DNA of 51,483 nucleotides. It comes from Candidatus Woesearchaeota archaeon. GTDB taxonomy: Archaea > Nanobdellota > Nanobdellia > Pacearchaeales > GW2011-AR1. The notes beneath the pieces were generated by a model. It made no database searches, was not told the origin of the DNA, and was given only the letters and a program-made list of their open reading frames with translations. A program made the position numbers and the translations under genes. This document shows positions 1-49,752 of the stretch, piece after piece (the first letter of the stretch is position 1; every line of letters starts with the position of its first letter). The stretch covers positions 1 to 51,483 of the forward strand of contig CAZIFJ010000002.1 in assembly GCA_964538235.1 (NCBI GenBank), in the 5' to 3' direction.

Positions 1-3
1 AAT

Positions 4-126
4 GTCACAAAACCTGCGGGTTTTAACCCCGCACTAAAGTGCGGGGCTTGTTCGTGGTTTTGTGGCCACCGAGAAATCCGCGACATACAAACCACGGGCT
101 AAAGCCCGCGGATTTAACGAGTGTTA
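4..126 (+). repeat. Type A nested-hairpin mosaic repeat (long form), at the window edge upstream of secF
   Basis: gtcacaaaacc..ggttttgtg outer stem encloses the hairpin ccccgcac-taaa-gtgcgggg. A second unit carries cacgggc-taaa-gcccgcg and ends aacgagtgtta. Collinear with 10308-10436 and the reverse complement of 19111-19197. GC-rich in an AT-rich background. The left boundary may be truncated by the window. Confidence 0.8.
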
Positions 127-8531: not shown

Positions 8532-10343
8532 ATGGTAGAAAATAATTCTTTTTTAGATAAGGTGCTTAACAATTTTATAAATTTTATTTATTCTCCTTCT
8601 AAAAAATATGAAAGAATATTAATTTTTTTAGTAATTATAGGTTTTATTTTAAGACTTGCGGCTGCCCTTAATTTAGATGTGCTTGCCGATGATATGGTTT
8701 ATGCTTCTCAAAGTGCAGGAATATTAGATGCAAAAGTTTTGTCTACTCACTCAAATCCTCCACTATTTTTCTATCTAACAGATATAGCTTATCAAATATT
8801 TGGATACACCACATTTGCTTCTAGATTTTGGCCTCTTATTTATGGAACTATGCTAATTATTATTGTTTTTTTAATTGGTAAATTTTTCTTTGATGAGAAA
8901 ACAGGACTCGCGGCTGCTTTTTTTGCAACTTTCTCTAATTTTTTGGTAAGAATGACTTTTACTGAGGCGGCCCTTATTGTTTTCTTTTTCTGTTTTCTTG
9001 GGGCTTATTTTGGTTTGATTTATTTAAAGAAAAGAGAGTTGAAGTGGCTTGTTTTGTCAGGGGTTGTTTTTGGCCTTGGATTGCTGACTAAATACAATAC
9101 TCCTTTCTTTATTATGTCTTTCTTGGTTTACTCTGCTTATTTTATTAAATCTAAAAAAGAAATTGTTTTTAGTAAAAATAATATAAAAAATTTATTTATT
9201 TTCATTAGTATTTTATTTTTATTTGCTTTGCCTTTCTTATCTTTTAATTATTTATTATATAAAGATAAGGGGATAGTTGATGTCTATTTTAGCAGAATAA
9301 TAAACTTAGAAAAAACTCAAGAACTTTATGGTGGGCTGGCTGGACAAGGAAATAGCTTCTTTGATAATTTATTAAATATAAAAAATTATGGAAATTATTC
9401 TTTGTTATATCATACAGATATAGTCATATTAATTTTTTCTTTATTTGGAATATTTTTATGGATTAAAGATAAAAGAAAGCATGAGCTTGTTTTTTTTATT
9501 ATATTTTTAGTTATTCCATTTGTTTTGCAAAGTGCTGGATCCCCTTTACAAAAACACTTTTCTTTTATGATAATATTATTTTCTTTACCAGCCGGATATA
9601 GTATTAATTTTATATTTGAAAAGATTTCTAGTTGGAAAATGATTTTTCTTATTGCTATTCTACTTTCTGCTTTTCTAATTTATAATCTAAATATTGCTTA
9701 TGGAACTCCACAAAACTATTTTTCTAAAAGTCCTACTTCACAATTGAAAAGTTGGATAAATAGTAATGTAGAAGAAAACAGTCTTATAGTTTTTGATTCA
9801 AGAATATATCCTGCAAGATCTATTTGGGCAGCAACACCTAAAAATTTTCTTTTATTAGATCAATTCTTTTCTTTCTATGAAATAAATCAAAATATTAGTT
9901 CTGAAAAAATACCAACAAAAATTCATATTGTAGAATGTGCTATTGATGATTGTGGCTTAGGATGGGTAAAAGACAACTCTGAATTTAATATTTCTTCTGA
10001 AAATGTTTTAAATGTTTTAAAAAATAATTCAAATTTGGAAGAAATTATTTATTTAAAGCAGAAAAATGAAGGTAAGGAAGAAATATATAGATTATATAAT
10101 ATAAATATCCCAATTCATCCTTCGCTTTTAGAACAGACTAAATTAATACAACAGTTCTATTTCACACCCTATCTATATAAAAATATGAATAATTATATTT
10201 TCTCTTTAAGTGATAAAAATATAATTATCAAAGATTTATCTCTACTAATAATTTATTTATCTATTTTCTTAACTTTTATATTTTTAGTATATTCCTCTCT
10301 TATAATTATCACAAAACCCTTCGGGTTTTCTACTCCACACTAA
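8532..10343 (+). CDS. GT-C fold membrane glycosyltransferase (ArnT/PMT, GT39/GT83-like)
   Basis: 603 aa. More than 10 TM helices in the N-terminal 400 aa with an early acidic loop (LDVLADDMVYAS), followed by a soluble C-terminal domain. The last 11 codons and the TAA stop lie inside repeat 10308-10436. Confidence 0.7.
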   Translation: MVENNSFLDKVLNNFINFIYSPSKKYERILIFLVIIGFILRLAAALNLDVLADDMVYASQSAGILDAKVLSTHSNPPLFFYLTDIAYQIFGYTTFASRFWPLIYGTMLIIIVFLIGKFFFDEKTGLAAAFFATFSNFLVRMTFTEAALIVFFFCFLGAYFGLIYLKKRELKWLVLSGVVFGLGLLTKYNTPFFIMSFLVYSAYFIKSKKEIVFSKNNIKNLFIFISILFLFALPFLSFNYLLYKDKGIVDVYFSRIINLEKTQELYGGLAGQGNSFFDNLLNIKNYGNYSLLYHTDIVILIFSLFGIFLWIKDKRKHELVFFIIFLVIPFVLQSAGSPLQKHFSFMIILFSLPAGYSINFIFEKISSWKMIFLIAILLSAFLIYNLNIAYGTPQNYFSKSPTSQLKSWINSNVEENSLIVFDSRIYPARSIWAATPKNFLLLDQFFSFYEINQNISSEKIPTKIHIVECAIDDCGLGWVKDNSEFNISSENVLNVLKNNSNLEEIIYLKQKNEGKEEIYRLYNINIPIHPSLLEQTKLIQQFYFTPYLYKNMNNYIFSLSDKNIIIKDLSLLIIYLSIFLTFIFLVYSSLIIITKPFGFSTPH

Positions 10344-10436
10344 AGTGTGGAGTTTGTTCGTGGTTTTGTGATTACCGTGGAAAATCGACAGGAATACAAC
10401 TCCAATCTAAAGATTGGAGATTTTCAACGAGTATTA
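10308..10436 (+). repeat. Type A nested-hairpin mosaic repeat (long form)
   Basis: atcacaaaacc..ggttttgtg encloses ctccacac-taaa-gtgtggag. The second unit carries ctccaatc-taaa-gattggag and ends aacgagtatta. Collinear with 4-126, with different but still complementary stems. Confidence 0.85.
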
Positions 10437-10449
10437 ATTAATTAATATA

Positions 10450-17240: not shown

Positions 17241-17417
17241 ATCAAAAAAACAATGTGCCACCACACCTTAAAAGGGGTGGTTTGATTGGCGCTTGTTTTT
17301 TGGATGCATGAAAAATCTTTTATGGATTTTTCTGCACAGAGAATTGCCCTCGTCAGCAATTCTCTTGTGCTCACGGCACGCCTCGCCTTAAAAGGCGAGG
17401 TTTTCACGTGCTGTGAC
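17241..17417 (+). repeat. Type B nested-hairpin mosaic repeat, long form (177 nt, four hairpins)
   Basis: atcaaaaaaa terminus. Unit caatgtgcca-ccacacc-ttaaaa-ggggtgg-tttgat-tggcgcttg, then linker ttttttggatgc. A 63-nt extra block follows with the hairpins gaaaaatc/gatttttc and cacagagaattgc/gcaattctcttgtg. Then unit cacggcacg-cctcgcc-ttaaaa-ggcgagg-ttttca-cgtgctgtg, ending gac(at). Apart from the 63-nt block it is the reverse complement of 25411-25524. Confidence 0.85.
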
Positions 17418-17433
17418 ATAACCAAAAACATCT

Positions 17434-19083: not shown

Positions 19084-19110
19084 TAAAATCGAAGATTTAT
19101 AAATATTTCA

Positions 19111-19197
19111 TAACGCTCGTTAAATCCGTGGGCTTTTAGCCTGTGGTTTGTTCGCCGCGGATTTCTCGGCTGCCACAAAACCCACAGGTTTTGTGAC
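19111..19197 (-). repeat. Type A repeat, short form (87 nt, lacks the inner hairpin of unit 1), inverted relative to 4-126
   Basis: The reverse complement reads gtcacaaaacc-tgtg-ggttttgtg-gcagccgagaaatccgcggcgaacaaac-cacaggc-taaaa-gcccacgg-atttaacgagcgtta. It lies between divergent gene starts 19083(-) and 19242(+). Confidence 0.8.
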
Positions 19198-25314: not shown

Positions 25315-25789
25315 AGTAGTAATGTAATAAAAGTTGACGAAGCAATCAAGATAGAATCCCTAAAAGTAGAATTATTTGGAACTGGAAAGGCTTCAAGAAA
25401 ATCTCTTTATGTCACAGCACGTGAAAACCTCGCCTTTTAAGGCGAGGCGTGCCGTGAGCATCCAAAAAACAAGTGCCAATCAAACCACACCTTAAAAGGT
25501 GTGGTGGCACATTGTTTTTTTGATATTAAAGATGCTGCAAGGGAGTGTTATTCTTGCACTAAAAAATTATAAAAAATCTGAGCCGATTAATTTAGGTTTA
25601 GGAGAAGAAATAACTATCTGCGCACTTGCTCAAAAAATAAAAGAATTCATGAAATTTAATGGAAAGATTATTAGGGATACAATGAAACCAGAAGGTCCTT
25701 TGAGAAGATGTTTAGATAATACAAGGGCAAAAAAAGATATAGGATTTAAACCACGTATTAAACTAGAAGAGGTCTTAGAGAAACAGTAA
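25315..25789 (+). pseudogene. 5'-truncated, repeat-interrupted and frameshifted remnant of a second GDP-fucose synthase (fcl paralog)
   Basis: Frame 1 reads SNVIKVDEAIKIESLKVELFGTGKASRKSLYV, then the 114-nt repeat, then DIKDAAR. Homology then continues in another frame as GSVILALKNY...KPEGPLRRCLDNTRAKKDIGFKP. All of this is collinear with residues about 190-305 of the intact fcl (SHVIPSLIKKFDEA..IEIWGGGNVSREFLYVEDAAKGIILAIKNY..KPEGQLRRCLDSTKCIKKIGFSP). Confidence 0.8.
25411..25524 (-). repeat. Type B nested-hairpin mosaic repeat, short form (114 nt), inserted in the fcl pseudogene
   Basis: gtcacagcacg-tgaaaa-cctcgcc-ttttaa-ggcgagg-cgtgccgtg, agcatccaaaaaa, caagtgcca-atcaaa-ccacacc-ttaaaa-ggtgtgg-tggcacattg, tttttttgat. 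It is the reverse complement of 17241-17417 minus the 63-nt block. Confidence 0.88.
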
Positions 25790-25804: not shown

Positions 25805-25918
25805 ATCAAAAAGTCTTTGCGTTTACTCCACACTAAAGTGTGGAGTTTGTTCGAGACTTTTGGATGCTCAAGATTCAACTCCATGCTAAAGCATGGAGTT
25901 TTAGTCAAGAATCTTGAC
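25805..25918 (+). repeat. Type C nested-hairpin mosaic repeat (114 nt)
   Basis: atcaaaaagtct-ttgcgtttac-tccacac-taaa-gtgtgga-gtttgttcg-agacttt, linker tggatgctc, then aagattc-aa-ctccatgc-taaa-gcatggag-ttttagtca-agaatctt-gac. It shares termini and linker with types B and D. 25824-25853 is identical to 10331-10360. Confidence 0.85.
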
Positions 25919-25970
25919 ATAAAGAAAAATTATAGATGATTTTATAACAATTTTAGTTTGGATACTAAGA

Positions 25971-27322: not shown

Positions 27323-28081
27323 TTACTTTTCTAAATATTTAGTTTCGTCTTTTTGATTAGTCCAATAAAATCCTTCTTGTCTTAGTCTACATGACAGGCA
27401 AGTTCCGCAATGTATTGAATTTGAAGTGTAACAAGAGAATGTTTTTTTTAGAGGAACTTTCAACTTTAAAGCCAAATTAATAATATCTTCCTTATCTTTT
27501 TTTATTAATGGTGTGAGAATTTTTGGTTTTGAAATTGTTGAAATTGAATTTAATTTATTCATTTGATTTACATATTCTTTAGTTGTATCTGGATAAAATT
27601 CTTTTCCTTCATTTTTAAAACCGACAAAAATATCGCATTTTGTTTTATTTTTTTTATGCCAAGATGATTTGAGATCATCTTGGACATCCAAAACTCCAAA
27701 CAAATCGCGGACTTTTAGAAATTCTGACTCTGCCAAAGTCGTCGCATAATTTAAGAAAATTGTATTTCTTAATGGAACATACCATCTCAAACTTTCATTT
27801 TTTGTGTCTTTCAAATCTTTTTTTGTTAATTTATTGTACGATTTTTGGTTGTTTGTTAAATTAGATGAGAAATTTTTTAACCATTTAAGATCTACTTCTA
27901 AAAATTTTGCTCTTATTTCTCTTGCGCAAAATTTTGAAGCTTTTCTTTCTGCTTTAATAGCTCTTTGTCCATAATTAAAAAATAAAATTTCCAAATTGTT
28001 ATAATTTAATTTATTTTTTACATAATAAGCAGTTGTTACACTATCTATTCCTCCTGAACATAAAATTATTGCCGATTTCAT
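27323..28081 (-). CDS. queC: 7-cyano-7-deazaguanine synthase (archaeosine/queuosine precursor pathway)
   Basis: MKSAIILCSGGIDSVT PP-loop and the C-terminal zinc motif CYTSNSIHCGTCLSCRLRQEGF. Confidence 0.85.
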   Translation of the reverse strand: MKSAIILCSGGIDSVTTAYYVKNKLNYNNLEILFFNYGQRAIKAERKASKFCAREIRAKFLEVDLKWLKNFSSNLTNNQKSYNKLTKKDLKDTKNESLRWYVPLRNTIFLNYATTLAESEFLKVRDLFGVLDVQDDLKSSWHKKNKTKCDIFVGFKNEGKEFYPDTTKEYVNQMNKLNSISTISKPKILTPLIKKDKEDIINLALKLKVPLKKTFSCYTSNSIHCGTCLSCRLRQEGFYWTNQKDETKYLEK

Positions 28082-48240: not shown

Positions 48241-48364
48241 TTTAATTTAATCCTTCCTTTTTTAAAAAATTTTCTATGAATAAACTCATATTATAAATTG
48301 TAAAAAAGAACTTATTTAAACTTAACTAAAATTTTCTGCTCTATTGAAAAGAGTTAAAGAAATT

Positions 48365-48970
48365 TTACTGAATTTTCCAAACTTGTAACTCTTCCATAAA
48401 AATTTTCTTTTTTGAAATAATTATTTTTTTTAGTTTTTGTTTTTTTAGTTCGGTAAGAATTCTCTTTTTTGGTGTTAGAGAAGATAATAAAAGAAGAATT
48501 ATTCCTTTTTTTAGCAAATATGATTTTACGTTTTTTAAAAATCTCAAAATTATTTCATCACCTTTTTTTCCTCCTGTTGTAATTAATTTACTTTCAGAGT
48601 CTTCTAATGAATCTTCTGGAAGATAAGGAGGATTAAAAATAATTAAATTAAACTTTCCTTTTATTTTTGAAAACAAATCTGATTTTATCACATTGTAATT
48701 TTTTGATGTCGAAGTGCTTGACAAACCTCGCACTTTAGTGCGAGGAGCACTTCGAGCATCCAAAAGTCCACGAAAAGGACTTTTTGATTTGAGAAATATA
48801 ATTGAATCATCATCTATATCCGAGGATAAAACTGATTTTGCTCCGAATTTTATCGCGACTTCTGTTTGAATTCCCGATCCTGCTCCTAAATCAAGAACTA
48901 TTTTTCCTTTTGCGAATTTTTTTACACATTCTTCTAAAAGATAAGAATCTTCTGATGGAGAGTAAATCAT
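48365..48970 (-). CDS. Archaeal HemK-related / Mtq2-like N5-glutamine methyltransferase carrying an in-frame repeat insertion
   Basis: IYSPSEDSYLL, VLDLGAGSGI, SSDID, IIFNPPYLP (NPPY). Residues 61-88 (KSKSPFRGLLDARSAPRTKVRGLSSTST) are encoded by repeat 48708-48788. Confidence 0.78.
   Translation of the reverse strand: MIYSPSEDSYLLEECVKKFAKGKIVLDLGAGSGIQTEVAIKFGAKSVLSSDIDDDSIIFLKSKSPFRGLLDARSAPRTKVRGLSSTSTSKNYNVIKSDLFSKIKGKFNLIIFNPPYLPEDSLEDSESKLITTGGKKGDEIILRFLKNVKSYLLKKGIILLLLSSLTPKKRILTELKKQKLKKIIISKKKIFMEELQVWKIQ
48708..48788 (-). repeat. Type D nested-hairpin repeat (81 nt) inside the methyltransferase CDS
   Basis: gtc-gaagtgct-tgacaaa-cctcgcac-ttta-gtgcgagg-agcacttc-gagcatcc-aaaagtcc-acgaaaa-ggactttt-tgat. 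48706-48788 is the exact reverse complement of 49423-49505. Confidence 0.9.
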
Positions 48971-49752
48971 ATTTTATTTTCTCTTATAAATTTAGATAAA
49001 ATTATTGACAAATATGGCGGGATAAATATTAAAGATATTATTTCATAAAAAGATTCTGGAAGAAATAATATGATTTCATTAAAAATAAAAAAGGCTAATA
49101 AAATTACCCCAACAGAAATATAATTATTTTTTACAAAATTAAAACTTTTTATTAATCCTTCTTTAAAGCTTAAATTAAAGATAATAAAATAAAAATTTGT
49201 AAAGGCTAAAAATATTATAAACCCAAATAAACCAATAAAATAAAAAATTAAAAATAAAATTTTTGCAGAATTTTCTGGAAGAGAAAAAATTCCGCCTATA
49301 AAAAAAGTTAAGTGAAAAGAAAGATAATTTACAATATTATAAAATACTAAAAATAGAAGAATAAAAAAGAAATTTTTCATAAAAAATTTATTTGCCTCTT
49401 TGAAAAAAAATTTCATTTTATTATCAAAAAGTCCTTTTCGTGGACTTTTGGATGCTCGAAGTGCTCCTCGCACTAAAGTGCGAGGTTTGTCAAGCACTTC
49501 GACATTATTTGAATTTTTTCCTGAAAGAGAGATAAGGCCTGCAAAAAAATAAGAAATAAGAAGTAAATTTCCTAGTGAGAAAATTACAAGCCAAGAGCTT
49601 ATTAAAAACCCTGATTTAAAAGATTGATTAATTTCTATTGAAACAGATGAAAAAATCGTGAGTAAAAAAAATAAAGTTGTACTTGGAATTATTAAATAAA
49701 AATTTTTATAAAAATAATAAAGAGATTCTCTGAAAAGATTAATTAAATCCAT
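48967..49752 (-). CDS. Polytopic membrane protein of unknown function carrying an in-frame repeat insertion
   Basis: 261 aa with about 6 TM helices. Codons 84-110 (VEVLDKPRTLVRGALRASKSPRKGLFD) are encoded exactly by repeat 49423-49503. Confidence 0.55.
   Translation of the reverse strand: MDLINLFRESLYYFYKNFYLIIPSTTLFFLLTIFSSVSIEINQSFKSGFLISSWLVIFSLGNLLLISYFFAGLISLSGKNSNNVEVLDKPRTLVRGALRASKSPRKGLFDNKMKFFFKEANKFFMKNFFFILLFLVFYNIVNYLSFHLTFFIGGIFSLPENSAKILFLIFYFIGLFGFIIFLAFTNFYFIIFNLSFKEGLIKSFNFVKNNYISVGVILLAFFIFNEIILFLPESFYEIISLIFIPPYLSIILSKFIRENKI
49423..49503 (+). repeat. Type D nested-hairpin repeat (81 nt) inside the membrane-protein CDS
   Basis: atcaaaaagtcc-ttttcgt-ggactttt-ggatgctc-gaagtgct-cctcgcac-taaa-gtgcgagg-tttgtca-agcacttc-gac. 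It is an inverted, identical copy of 48708-48788. Confidence 0.9.

Follow-up and report, generated by a model that had tools for sequence, protein, structure and literature searches.

In-frame copies of a hairpin-forming repeat in two adjacent genes of a Candidatus Woesearchaeota archaeon

A stretch of 51,483 nt from contig CAZIFJ010000002.1 of a Candidatus Woesearchaeota archaeon (overall GC content 27.6 %), referred to here as the window, carries a perfect inverted pair of 83-nt repeats. The two arms, at positions 48706-48788 (copy A) and 49423-49505 (copy B), lie inside two adjacent genes on the minus strand, which encode a protein methyltransferase and a polytopic membrane protein. We consider it likely, with a probability of roughly 0.8, that the arms represent a mobile DNA element, non-autonomous and hairpin-forming, of which two copies were inserted in frame.

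An identical inverted pair inside two adjacent genes

A repeat search of the window revealed that the two arms are reverse complements of each other at 83 of 83 positions and are 634 nt apart; they form by far the longest inverted repeat of the window. For the 20-nt core hairpin of the repeat, 0 chance matches were expected (100 shuffles). The GC content of the 83-nt element is 46 %, compared with only 21 % in the DNA between the arms. Contig k139_31621 (7986 bp) of the ENA assembly ERZ27284378 is 100 % identical to the window over 2606 nt and contains both copies in the same orientation, which makes an assembly artefact very unlikely. The archaeal inverted pair is a genuine repeat, in agreement with the first-pass annotation of this DNA, which had been made from the letters alone and had also correctly described the bracketed 634-bp segment (48789-49422) with the junction of the two genes.

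The 83-nt identity is made up of an 81-nt net insert, equal to 27 codons in each of the two genes, and a shared AT dinucleotide. Codon arithmetic confirms the earlier claim that the copy in the membrane-protein gene occupies exactly codons 84-110 (49423-49503), to which 2 nt of codon 83 are added. The copy in the methyltransferase gene runs from the third base of codon 61 to the first base of codon 89. Segments of 27-28 residues had been proposed; the number of 27 codons holds for both genes, whereas the string of 28 residues given for the methyltransferase does not, as K61 is encoded by the host gene except for the third base of its codon. Both open reading frames (ORFs) are intact, and the repeats are in frame and free of stop codons in both, with the two proteins reading opposite strands of the element as had been stated. 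Copy A folds with -43 kcal/mol (z = -8.4), and the covariance model R1 scores copy A and copy B alike, at 76.9 bits.

Both copies lie in loops, as segments that orthologs lack

The methyltransferase of 201 aa reaches 112.7 bits with the profile TIGR00537 (cut-off 87), the match coming in two parts, one on either side of the insert. On the basis of this score and of its NPPY motif, the protein is assigned to the archaeal HemK2/MTQ2 methyltransferases. Its relatives are found in metagenome-assembled genomes (MAGs) of Pace-, Woese-, and Nanoarchaeota and are mostly 174-180 aa long. In an alignment with 18 of them (A1) the insert columns are gapped in 16, and every catalytic position (the GxGxG motif, D51, and N113-P114-P115-Y116) is invariant. 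Upon removal of codons 62-88 the methyltransferase reads LKSKNYNVIKSDLF, to be compared with LKQKNIPCIKSDLF in an ortholog. At the DNA level, an alignment made using MAFFT with four orthologous methyltransferase genes contained one clean gap of 81 columns. The reconstructed empty site of the methyltransferase gene (...CTCAAAT/CAAAAAATTAC..., with the slash at the junction) can be matched straight through the junction to the genes of five relatives, with which it shares 69-73 % identity at the DNA level. For the membrane-protein gene, the reconstructed empty site is ...TCAAATAAT/AATAAAATG.... The reconstructed empty sites of other element copies gave no matching loci; only that of the methyltransferase was matched.

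The membrane protein of 261 aa itself has no match in Pfam; its syntenic ortholog in one relative (L003) is a DUF7847 protein. A full HMMER search yielded 122 relatives, most of which match as two stretches that are split at the insert. The syntenic orthologs measure 224 and 239 aa and are without residues 84-110, and these residues are empty in 23 of 24 and in 40 of 40 relatives in two alignments. The order of the genes for RNase J, a small protein, the membrane protein, and the methyltransferase is kept in relatives, the membrane-protein gene being shorter or absent in two others. Taken with the 81-column gap, the alignments of both proteins bear out the supposition of the first-pass annotation that the segments are lineage-specific insertions.

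In models of both proteins made with AlphaFold (AF2), the inserts are the only stretches of low confidence. The methyltransferase model has a predicted local distance difference test (pLDDT) score of 80.9, and residues 69-89 are the sole segment below 50. The insert is modelled as coil between helix 54-63 and strand 91-95, which places it at the surface of an otherwise confident structure, in the loop that joins helix B to strand 3. In the Mtq2 structure 3q87, six residues correspond to residues 53-87 of the query. The model of the membrane protein (pLDDT 91.1) is low only at about residues 81-110, and its insert is predicted to form coil between the long helices 48-80 and 108-155.

The flanking genes in the window encode RNase J, a 117-aa protein, SpoIIM, and STT3. 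Between the methyltransferase gene and that of SpoIIM a spacer of 124 nt is present (48241-48364), where two relatives (L003 and L007) have a prefoldin gene and an IF-2B-family gene. As these genes are replaced by the spacer, the local gene order has been rearranged at this position.

A family of two-module hairpin repeats, probably selected as DNA

The inverted pair belongs to a larger family. Like-oriented copies share the plan ATCAAAAA-module 1-TTTTGGATGCTC-module 2-GACAT. A full copy is GC-rich, measures about 110-120 nt, and contains two nested-hairpin modules, each with an outer stem around an inner GC-rich hairpin that has a C-TAAA-G loop, after which comes a bulge rich in TTTG/TTTT. 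The 83-nt variant is apparently derived from such a copy, with module 1's inner hairpin missing. The corresponding full-length form of 113 nt, with a nearly identical module 2, was found in a Pacearchaeota MAG (L019, L039).

Module 2 was used to examine the family as a whole. A covariance model of this module gave 91 matches in 0.68 Mb of element-bearing loci of DPANN archaea. Module 1 is located directly upstream in 38 of 40 module-2 copies, and independent modules that merely share an AT are thereby ruled out. In an alignment of 34 distinct copies 95.7 % of the cells in the module-2 stems are paired, and 14 of the 21 pairs change on both sides, amounting to 156 compensatory cells; G-U pairs occur in only about 6 cells. 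The covariation score of 0.563 was reached by 0 of 500 shuffles, which scored 0.19, and sliding the structure gave values no higher than 0.095. Because covariation is strong, G-U pairs are nearly absent, and the two strands of the element fold equally well, the pattern points to selection on a DNA palindrome and not on an RNA. Rfam 15 gave 0 matches in the whole window; a known RNA family was ruled out by this result, and the scarcity of G-U pairs also argues for DNA.

Scans of GTDB genomes using the core hairpin and the two-module pattern revealed the family in dozens of MAGs of Woese-, Pace-, and Nanoarchaeota, often at contig ends. Two scans of IMG/VR produced, among the matches listed, chance matches only and none with the hairpin design. 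At least eight related copies, with sizes of 65-179 nt and without an ORF of their own, are present in the window (Table 1). In the composite copy, hairpins have been added directly after the conserved GGATGC linker, which suggests nested insertion or modular growth. In DPANN bins, assemblies seem to break frequently at these repeats. The contig of the window starts inside a repeat copy, and many copies in MAGs are located within about 100 nt of contig ends.

Table 1 Features of the inverted pair, its host genes, and related repeats; positions refer to the window except in the last row
Feature	Position	Strand	Description
Element copy A	48706..48788	-	ATCAAAAAG...CTTCGACAT on the minus strand; 81-nt net insert, methyltransferase codons 62-88, peptide SKSPFRGLLDARSAPRTKVRGLSSTST
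Element copy B	49423..49505	+	Exact reverse complement of copy A; membrane-protein codons 84-110, other strand read, peptide VEVLDKPRTLVRGALRASKSPRKGLFD
Segment between arms	48789..49422	.	634 nt, 21 % GC; 3' part of membrane-protein gene, gene junction, first 60 methyltransferase codons
HemK2/MTQ2-family protein (glutamine) methyltransferase gene (assigned by profile)	48365..48970	-	201 aa, intact; GxGxG, D51, and NPPY conserved
Polytopic membrane protein gene	48967..49752	-	261 aa, intact; overlaps the methyltransferase start by 4 nt
Full two-module copy, 116 nt	25409..25524	-	Inside decayed epimerase-like fragment; R1 70.3 bits
Full two-module copy, 116 nt	25805..25920	+	Intergenic; R1 80.6 bits
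Composite copy, 179 nt	17241..17419	+	Intergenic, 15 nt downstream of glycosyltransferase stop; two extra hairpins (about 60 nt) after GGATGC
Degenerate copy, 65 nt	27656..27720	-	Inside QueC gene; R1 31 bits, E = 3e-6
Related subfamily of hairpin repeats	2..126	-	Ends ...GTGACAT; very start of contig
Subfamily member	19108-19197	+	Hairpin repeat
Subfamily member	10307-10437	+	Gives final 11 codons and stop of ORF 8532-10343
Second repeat family (contig L009)	3871-3935, 4966-5030, 13597-13665		AGAGAATTTCGA...TCGAAATTCTCT, then GACAATTTGC...GCAAATTGTC

In-frame copies in other genes

Members of the family are also present inside other genes of the window. The QueC gene (27323-28081, minus strand) contains the degenerate copy, which encodes about residues 121-142 (FLKVRDLFGVLDVQDDLKSSWH) and uses the third open frame of the family. 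Matches to both the QueC profile TIGR00364 and the structure PDB 3bl5 are interrupted at this copy, the window QueC having about 26 extra residues. The copy in the epimerase fragment keeps the frame (114 nt net) but has a stop codon in that frame. The fragment itself (25340-25789) is an N-terminally truncated and frameshifted remnant of a gene of the NAD-dependent sugar epimerase or GDP-fucose-synthase-like type. The ORF at 8532-10343, which encodes a PMT_2-type glycosyltransferase, obtains its last 11 codons (ITKPFGFSTPH) and its stop codon from the subfamily member at its end.

Similar insertions were observed in proteins of other genomes. A 171-aa protein of the Pacearchaeota locus L019 contains an in-frame copy (DVEVFDKPRTLVRGTLRASKSPRK..GLFD) that is read in the same frame as that in the window membrane protein and specifies a nearly identical peptide, and an in-frame copy specifying a peptide similar to that of L019 was found in the leucyl-tRNA synthetase of L122. 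This DPANN synthetase (L122:5652-8000) is of the bacterial type, with the Thermus enzyme (2v0c) as its best PDB match; its editing domain is followed by some 184 residues that are specific to the lineage, and the copy is located among these. An M10 peptidase (L126) carries an in-frame copy as well. In the Nanoarchaeota MAG H32-bin105_1 (L062:452-2947) an in-frame copy is located inside the GyrB intein and is a case of one selfish element within another. A search of a set of 5.8 billion proteins with the two insert peptides of the window gave no candidates.

The capacity of the repeats to be read through was compared with that of shuffled sequences. The 83-nt variant is open in three of its six frames, a number that is reached by about 10 % of the shuffles. 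Family copies have 1.19 open frames on average, as against 0.58 in shuffles.

A second, unrelated family was encountered in a groundwater contig (L009, from ENA ERZ909605). This repeat of about 95 nt is AT-rich, has two hairpins, and is in frame at its sites, which are the same loop of the methyltransferase, the same loop of the membrane protein (and also the N-terminus of that protein), and phosphoribosyl pyrophosphate synthetase. Its peptide contains the motif ..NFDN....EFSNGQF.., and a similar peptide forms the extra loop of another relative (P0181); no repeat was detected in the 7.5-kb contig encoding P0181. Since each of the two proteins has been struck in the same loop by two unrelated element families, insertions seem to be readily tolerated at these positions.

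A proposed route of insertion

The observations described above can be joined into a single scheme. Each copy would have been inserted at an AT dinucleotide and would have added exactly 81 nt, one landing in the methyltransferase loop and the other, in the opposite orientation, in a loop of the membrane protein encoded upstream. Both insertions would postdate the split from the nearest sampled relative, in the assembly of which the family is present (L099) and both gene sites are empty. In compact, gene-dense genomes many insertions are expected to strike genes, and those surviving selection would be the ones that have a length of 3n, are free of stop codons in the frame of the host gene, and are located in a tolerant loop. 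Judging from the sequences, the inserts are most likely transcribed and translated and give rise to disordered, basic loops of 27 residues. The copies are probably moved by an enzyme that is supplied in trans and recognizes DNA hairpins.

Several results weigh against such a mobile element. No recurrent neighbouring gene or transposase was found in 115 element-bearing loci upon all-against-all BLASTP of 1070 ORFs, where no protein family occurred in more than 4 loci, and a Pfam scan of ten window ORFs next to other copies identified glycosylation and transport genes only and no transposase; these searches covered the element-bearing loci and the neighbouring ORFs and not whole genomes. The element as a whole is without clear terminal inverted repeats, and the flanking AT is constant, so that a target-site duplication is indistinguishable from element sequence. 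No empty-site allele from the same species turned up, the protein cluster consisting of this sequence alone and two scans of JGI metagenomes being empty. In addition, lengths of 3n are only mildly enriched in the family (length classes 37, 23, and 19); a general 3n length rule was dropped for this reason.

Alternative explanations

The strongest of the alternatives concerns the age of the two copies and not their nature. Their perfect identity could be the result of gene conversion between two older insertions instead of two very recent insertions; both possibilities had been raised by the first-pass annotation. The copies are only 634 nt apart and might have been made alike by recombination or repair, and exact-word scans for the 83-nt variant found no third copy in GTDB genomes or JGI metagenomes and thus no sign of a master copy that is now proliferating. 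The latter argument weighs little, however, as the genome is covered only in part, and the repeats at 17241-17419 and 25409-25524 are 93-100 % identical although they are 8 kb apart, a sign that the family has recently been active in this genome. Gene conversion is regarded as a possible but rather unlikely explanation of the identity.

Archaea can splice bulge-helix-bulge (BHB) introns from mRNAs, an example being the intron in the cbf5 pre-mRNA of Crenarchaeota. The inserts could likewise be removed before or after translation, for instance as BHB introns that are cut by the tRNA splicing endonuclease, and the element is indeed strongly structured as RNA. In the predicted folds, however, the modules pair with themselves, no single helix unites the 5' and 3' junctions, and there is no BHB motif, in which the two junctions would lie in 3-nt bulges on either side of a 4-bp helix; the 27 residues do not contain intein motifs either. 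In intact genes every copy has a length of 3n and is free of stop codons in the host frame, and the stop-bearing copy is in a decayed gene, a pattern that is partly due to the search method. Copies of this kind are expected if the inserts are translated and are not needed if they are spliced, which makes removal the less favoured explanation. We regard it as improbable.

A functional role of the inverted pair is, if anything, slightly less probable still. The pair could act as a switch by inversion of the segment between its arms, or as a regulator of the methyltransferase by way of an 83-bp RNA duplex in the operon transcript. Perfect 83-nt inverted arms do bracket the gene junction, and the first-pass annotation had proposed that they might promote inversion. 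That proposal found no support: inversion, though physically feasible, would put the first 60 codons of the methyltransferase gene and the last 151 of the membrane-protein gene on the wrong strand and would destroy both genes, the neighbouring ORFs (RNase J, the 117-aa protein, SpoIIM, and STT3) include no recombinase, and the sole other contig, k139_31621, has the same orientation. As to regulation, the genes are contiguous or overlapping and probably share a transcript, and in the minimum-energy fold of the co-transcript the arms pair over 83 bp with -163.5 kcal/mol, compared with -39 and -43 kcal/mol for the local folds. Co-transcriptional folding, on the other hand, favours local hairpins, and as orthologous operons exist without the repeats any regulation would be new and accidental. 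A regulatory effect of the modelled duplex is speculative. The predicted duplex in the minus-strand transcript (48695-49515) would enclose the start codon of the methyltransferase gene.

That the segments are ordinary lineage-specific loop expansions or an assembly artefact can be dismissed: although loop length varies among relatives (P0078 and P0102 have another insert on the scale of 27 residues and P0181 one of about 30 residues), the segments are exact reverse complements at the DNA level and differ in GC content from the surrounding DNA (46 % against 21 %), the second contig is identical, other genomes contain members of this sequence family at more than 90 places, the gap in the orthologs measures a clean 81 columns, and the other inserts in the variable loops are copies of the second repeat family.

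Comparison with known repeats

The mobile element proposed here behaves much like the Rickettsia palindromic elements (RPEs), repeats of about 100-150 nt (Ogata et al. 2000, as summarised in PMC10969869). Both are short palindromic repeats of an obligately host-associated organism whose genome is reduced and AT-rich, both are found in frame in unrelated housekeeping genes, where they add extra peptides at positions compatible with the protein fold, and neither has a known associated transposase. The parallel had been drawn by the first-pass annotation, and it is upheld by a repeated palindrome that is in frame in these genes and in other DPANN housekeeping genes, is absent from orthologs, and is located in loops that are compatible with the fold. 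The likeness is drawn on behaviour, and there are differences: the host is an archaeon, the DPANN repeats are shorter (83-120 nt) and combine two modules of nested hairpins with single-stranded motifs that are conserved, members are spread over several DPANN orders whereas RPEs are confined to one genus, and both strands of one variant are read here in adjacent genes. Membership in RPE families 1-10 is not claimed.

[quoted passage not shown] They share with MITEs presence or absence between relatives and occasional in-frame fusion to genes. In contrast to MITEs, the element has no convincing terminal inverted repeats, as its end ATCAAAAAG matches ATGTCGAAG, the reverse complement of the other end, at only 5 of 9 positions. 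Moreover, no parent insertion sequence with matching ends was found near the copies (115 loci and ten window ORFs). Every copy is bounded by AT...AT and the reconstructed empty site keeps one AT; the constant AT may belong to the element. In the 2024 census, from which protein-like candidates were filtered out and in which intragenic copies are not discussed, the MITE density of one Woesearchaeal genome ranks with the highest in archaea (PMC11602168). The examples of in-frame fusion in a 2024 MITE review are bacterial only (PMC10969869). The earlier remark that such insertions are rarely reported in archaea fits the literature searched, in which no description of in-frame palindromic elements of this kind in DPANN archaea was found.

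A DNA hairpin, and not terminal repeats, is also the defining feature of repetitive extragenic palindromic sequences and bacterial interspersed mosaic elements (REP/BIME), which are mobilised by REP-associated tyrosine transposases (RAYTs), and of elements derived from IS200/IS605. The stem covariation restricted to Watson-Crick pairs would be expected if the hairpin itself were recognized, and a modular or mosaic design is a further similarity. Unlike REP/BIME, the repeats lack a GTAG or CGTC tag (alignment A4) and are also present inside genes. No gene for a Y1 transposase or TnpB was detected near any copy. IS200/IS605-derived elements are matched in the presence of hairpins and the absence of terminal repeats; upstream of the copies the flank invariably closes with AT and is otherwise just AT-rich, and no partner gene was found.

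A further analogy is offered by organelles. In yeast mitochondria, G+C-rich palindromic clusters are hairpin repeats with short constant flanks that have invaded an AT-rich compact genome, including its coding regions. Repetitive hairpin elements are described for sponge mitochondria (PMC2800124). The organellar elements and the DPANN repeats have in common that GC-rich hairpins populate a very AT-rich compact genome; their sequences are presumed to be unrelated, and the comparison is an analogy only.

Implications

In conclusion, the repeats are to archaea what "selfish DNA inside genes" is to Rickettsia and constitute a new family of the RPE/MITE-like kind. In-frame selfish palindromes have so far been known essentially from Rickettsia, with scattered bacterial examples; the DPANN family shows that they recur in reduced, host-dependent genomes of both prokaryotic domains. 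The repeats account for odd extra loops in DPANN proteins and for many contig breaks. Their covariation, confined to Watson-Crick pairs, and their conserved loop and linker motifs provide a clear recognition target, which can serve as a guide in seeking the mobilising enzyme.

A broader interpretation is put forward here tentatively, as a conjecture that is somewhat less likely than its opposite. A family of mobile elements may extend clade-wide through the Woese-, Pace-, and Nanoarchaeota of the DPANN group; it would be specified by DNA hairpins, be without terminal repeats, be moved by a hairpin-recognizing enzyme, and routinely colonise surface loops of essential proteins. In keeping with this interpretation, a second, unrelated family occupies identical loops of both proteins in another lineage (L009). 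If the interpretation is true, such elements would continually supply the reduced genomes of these archaea with new protein segments.

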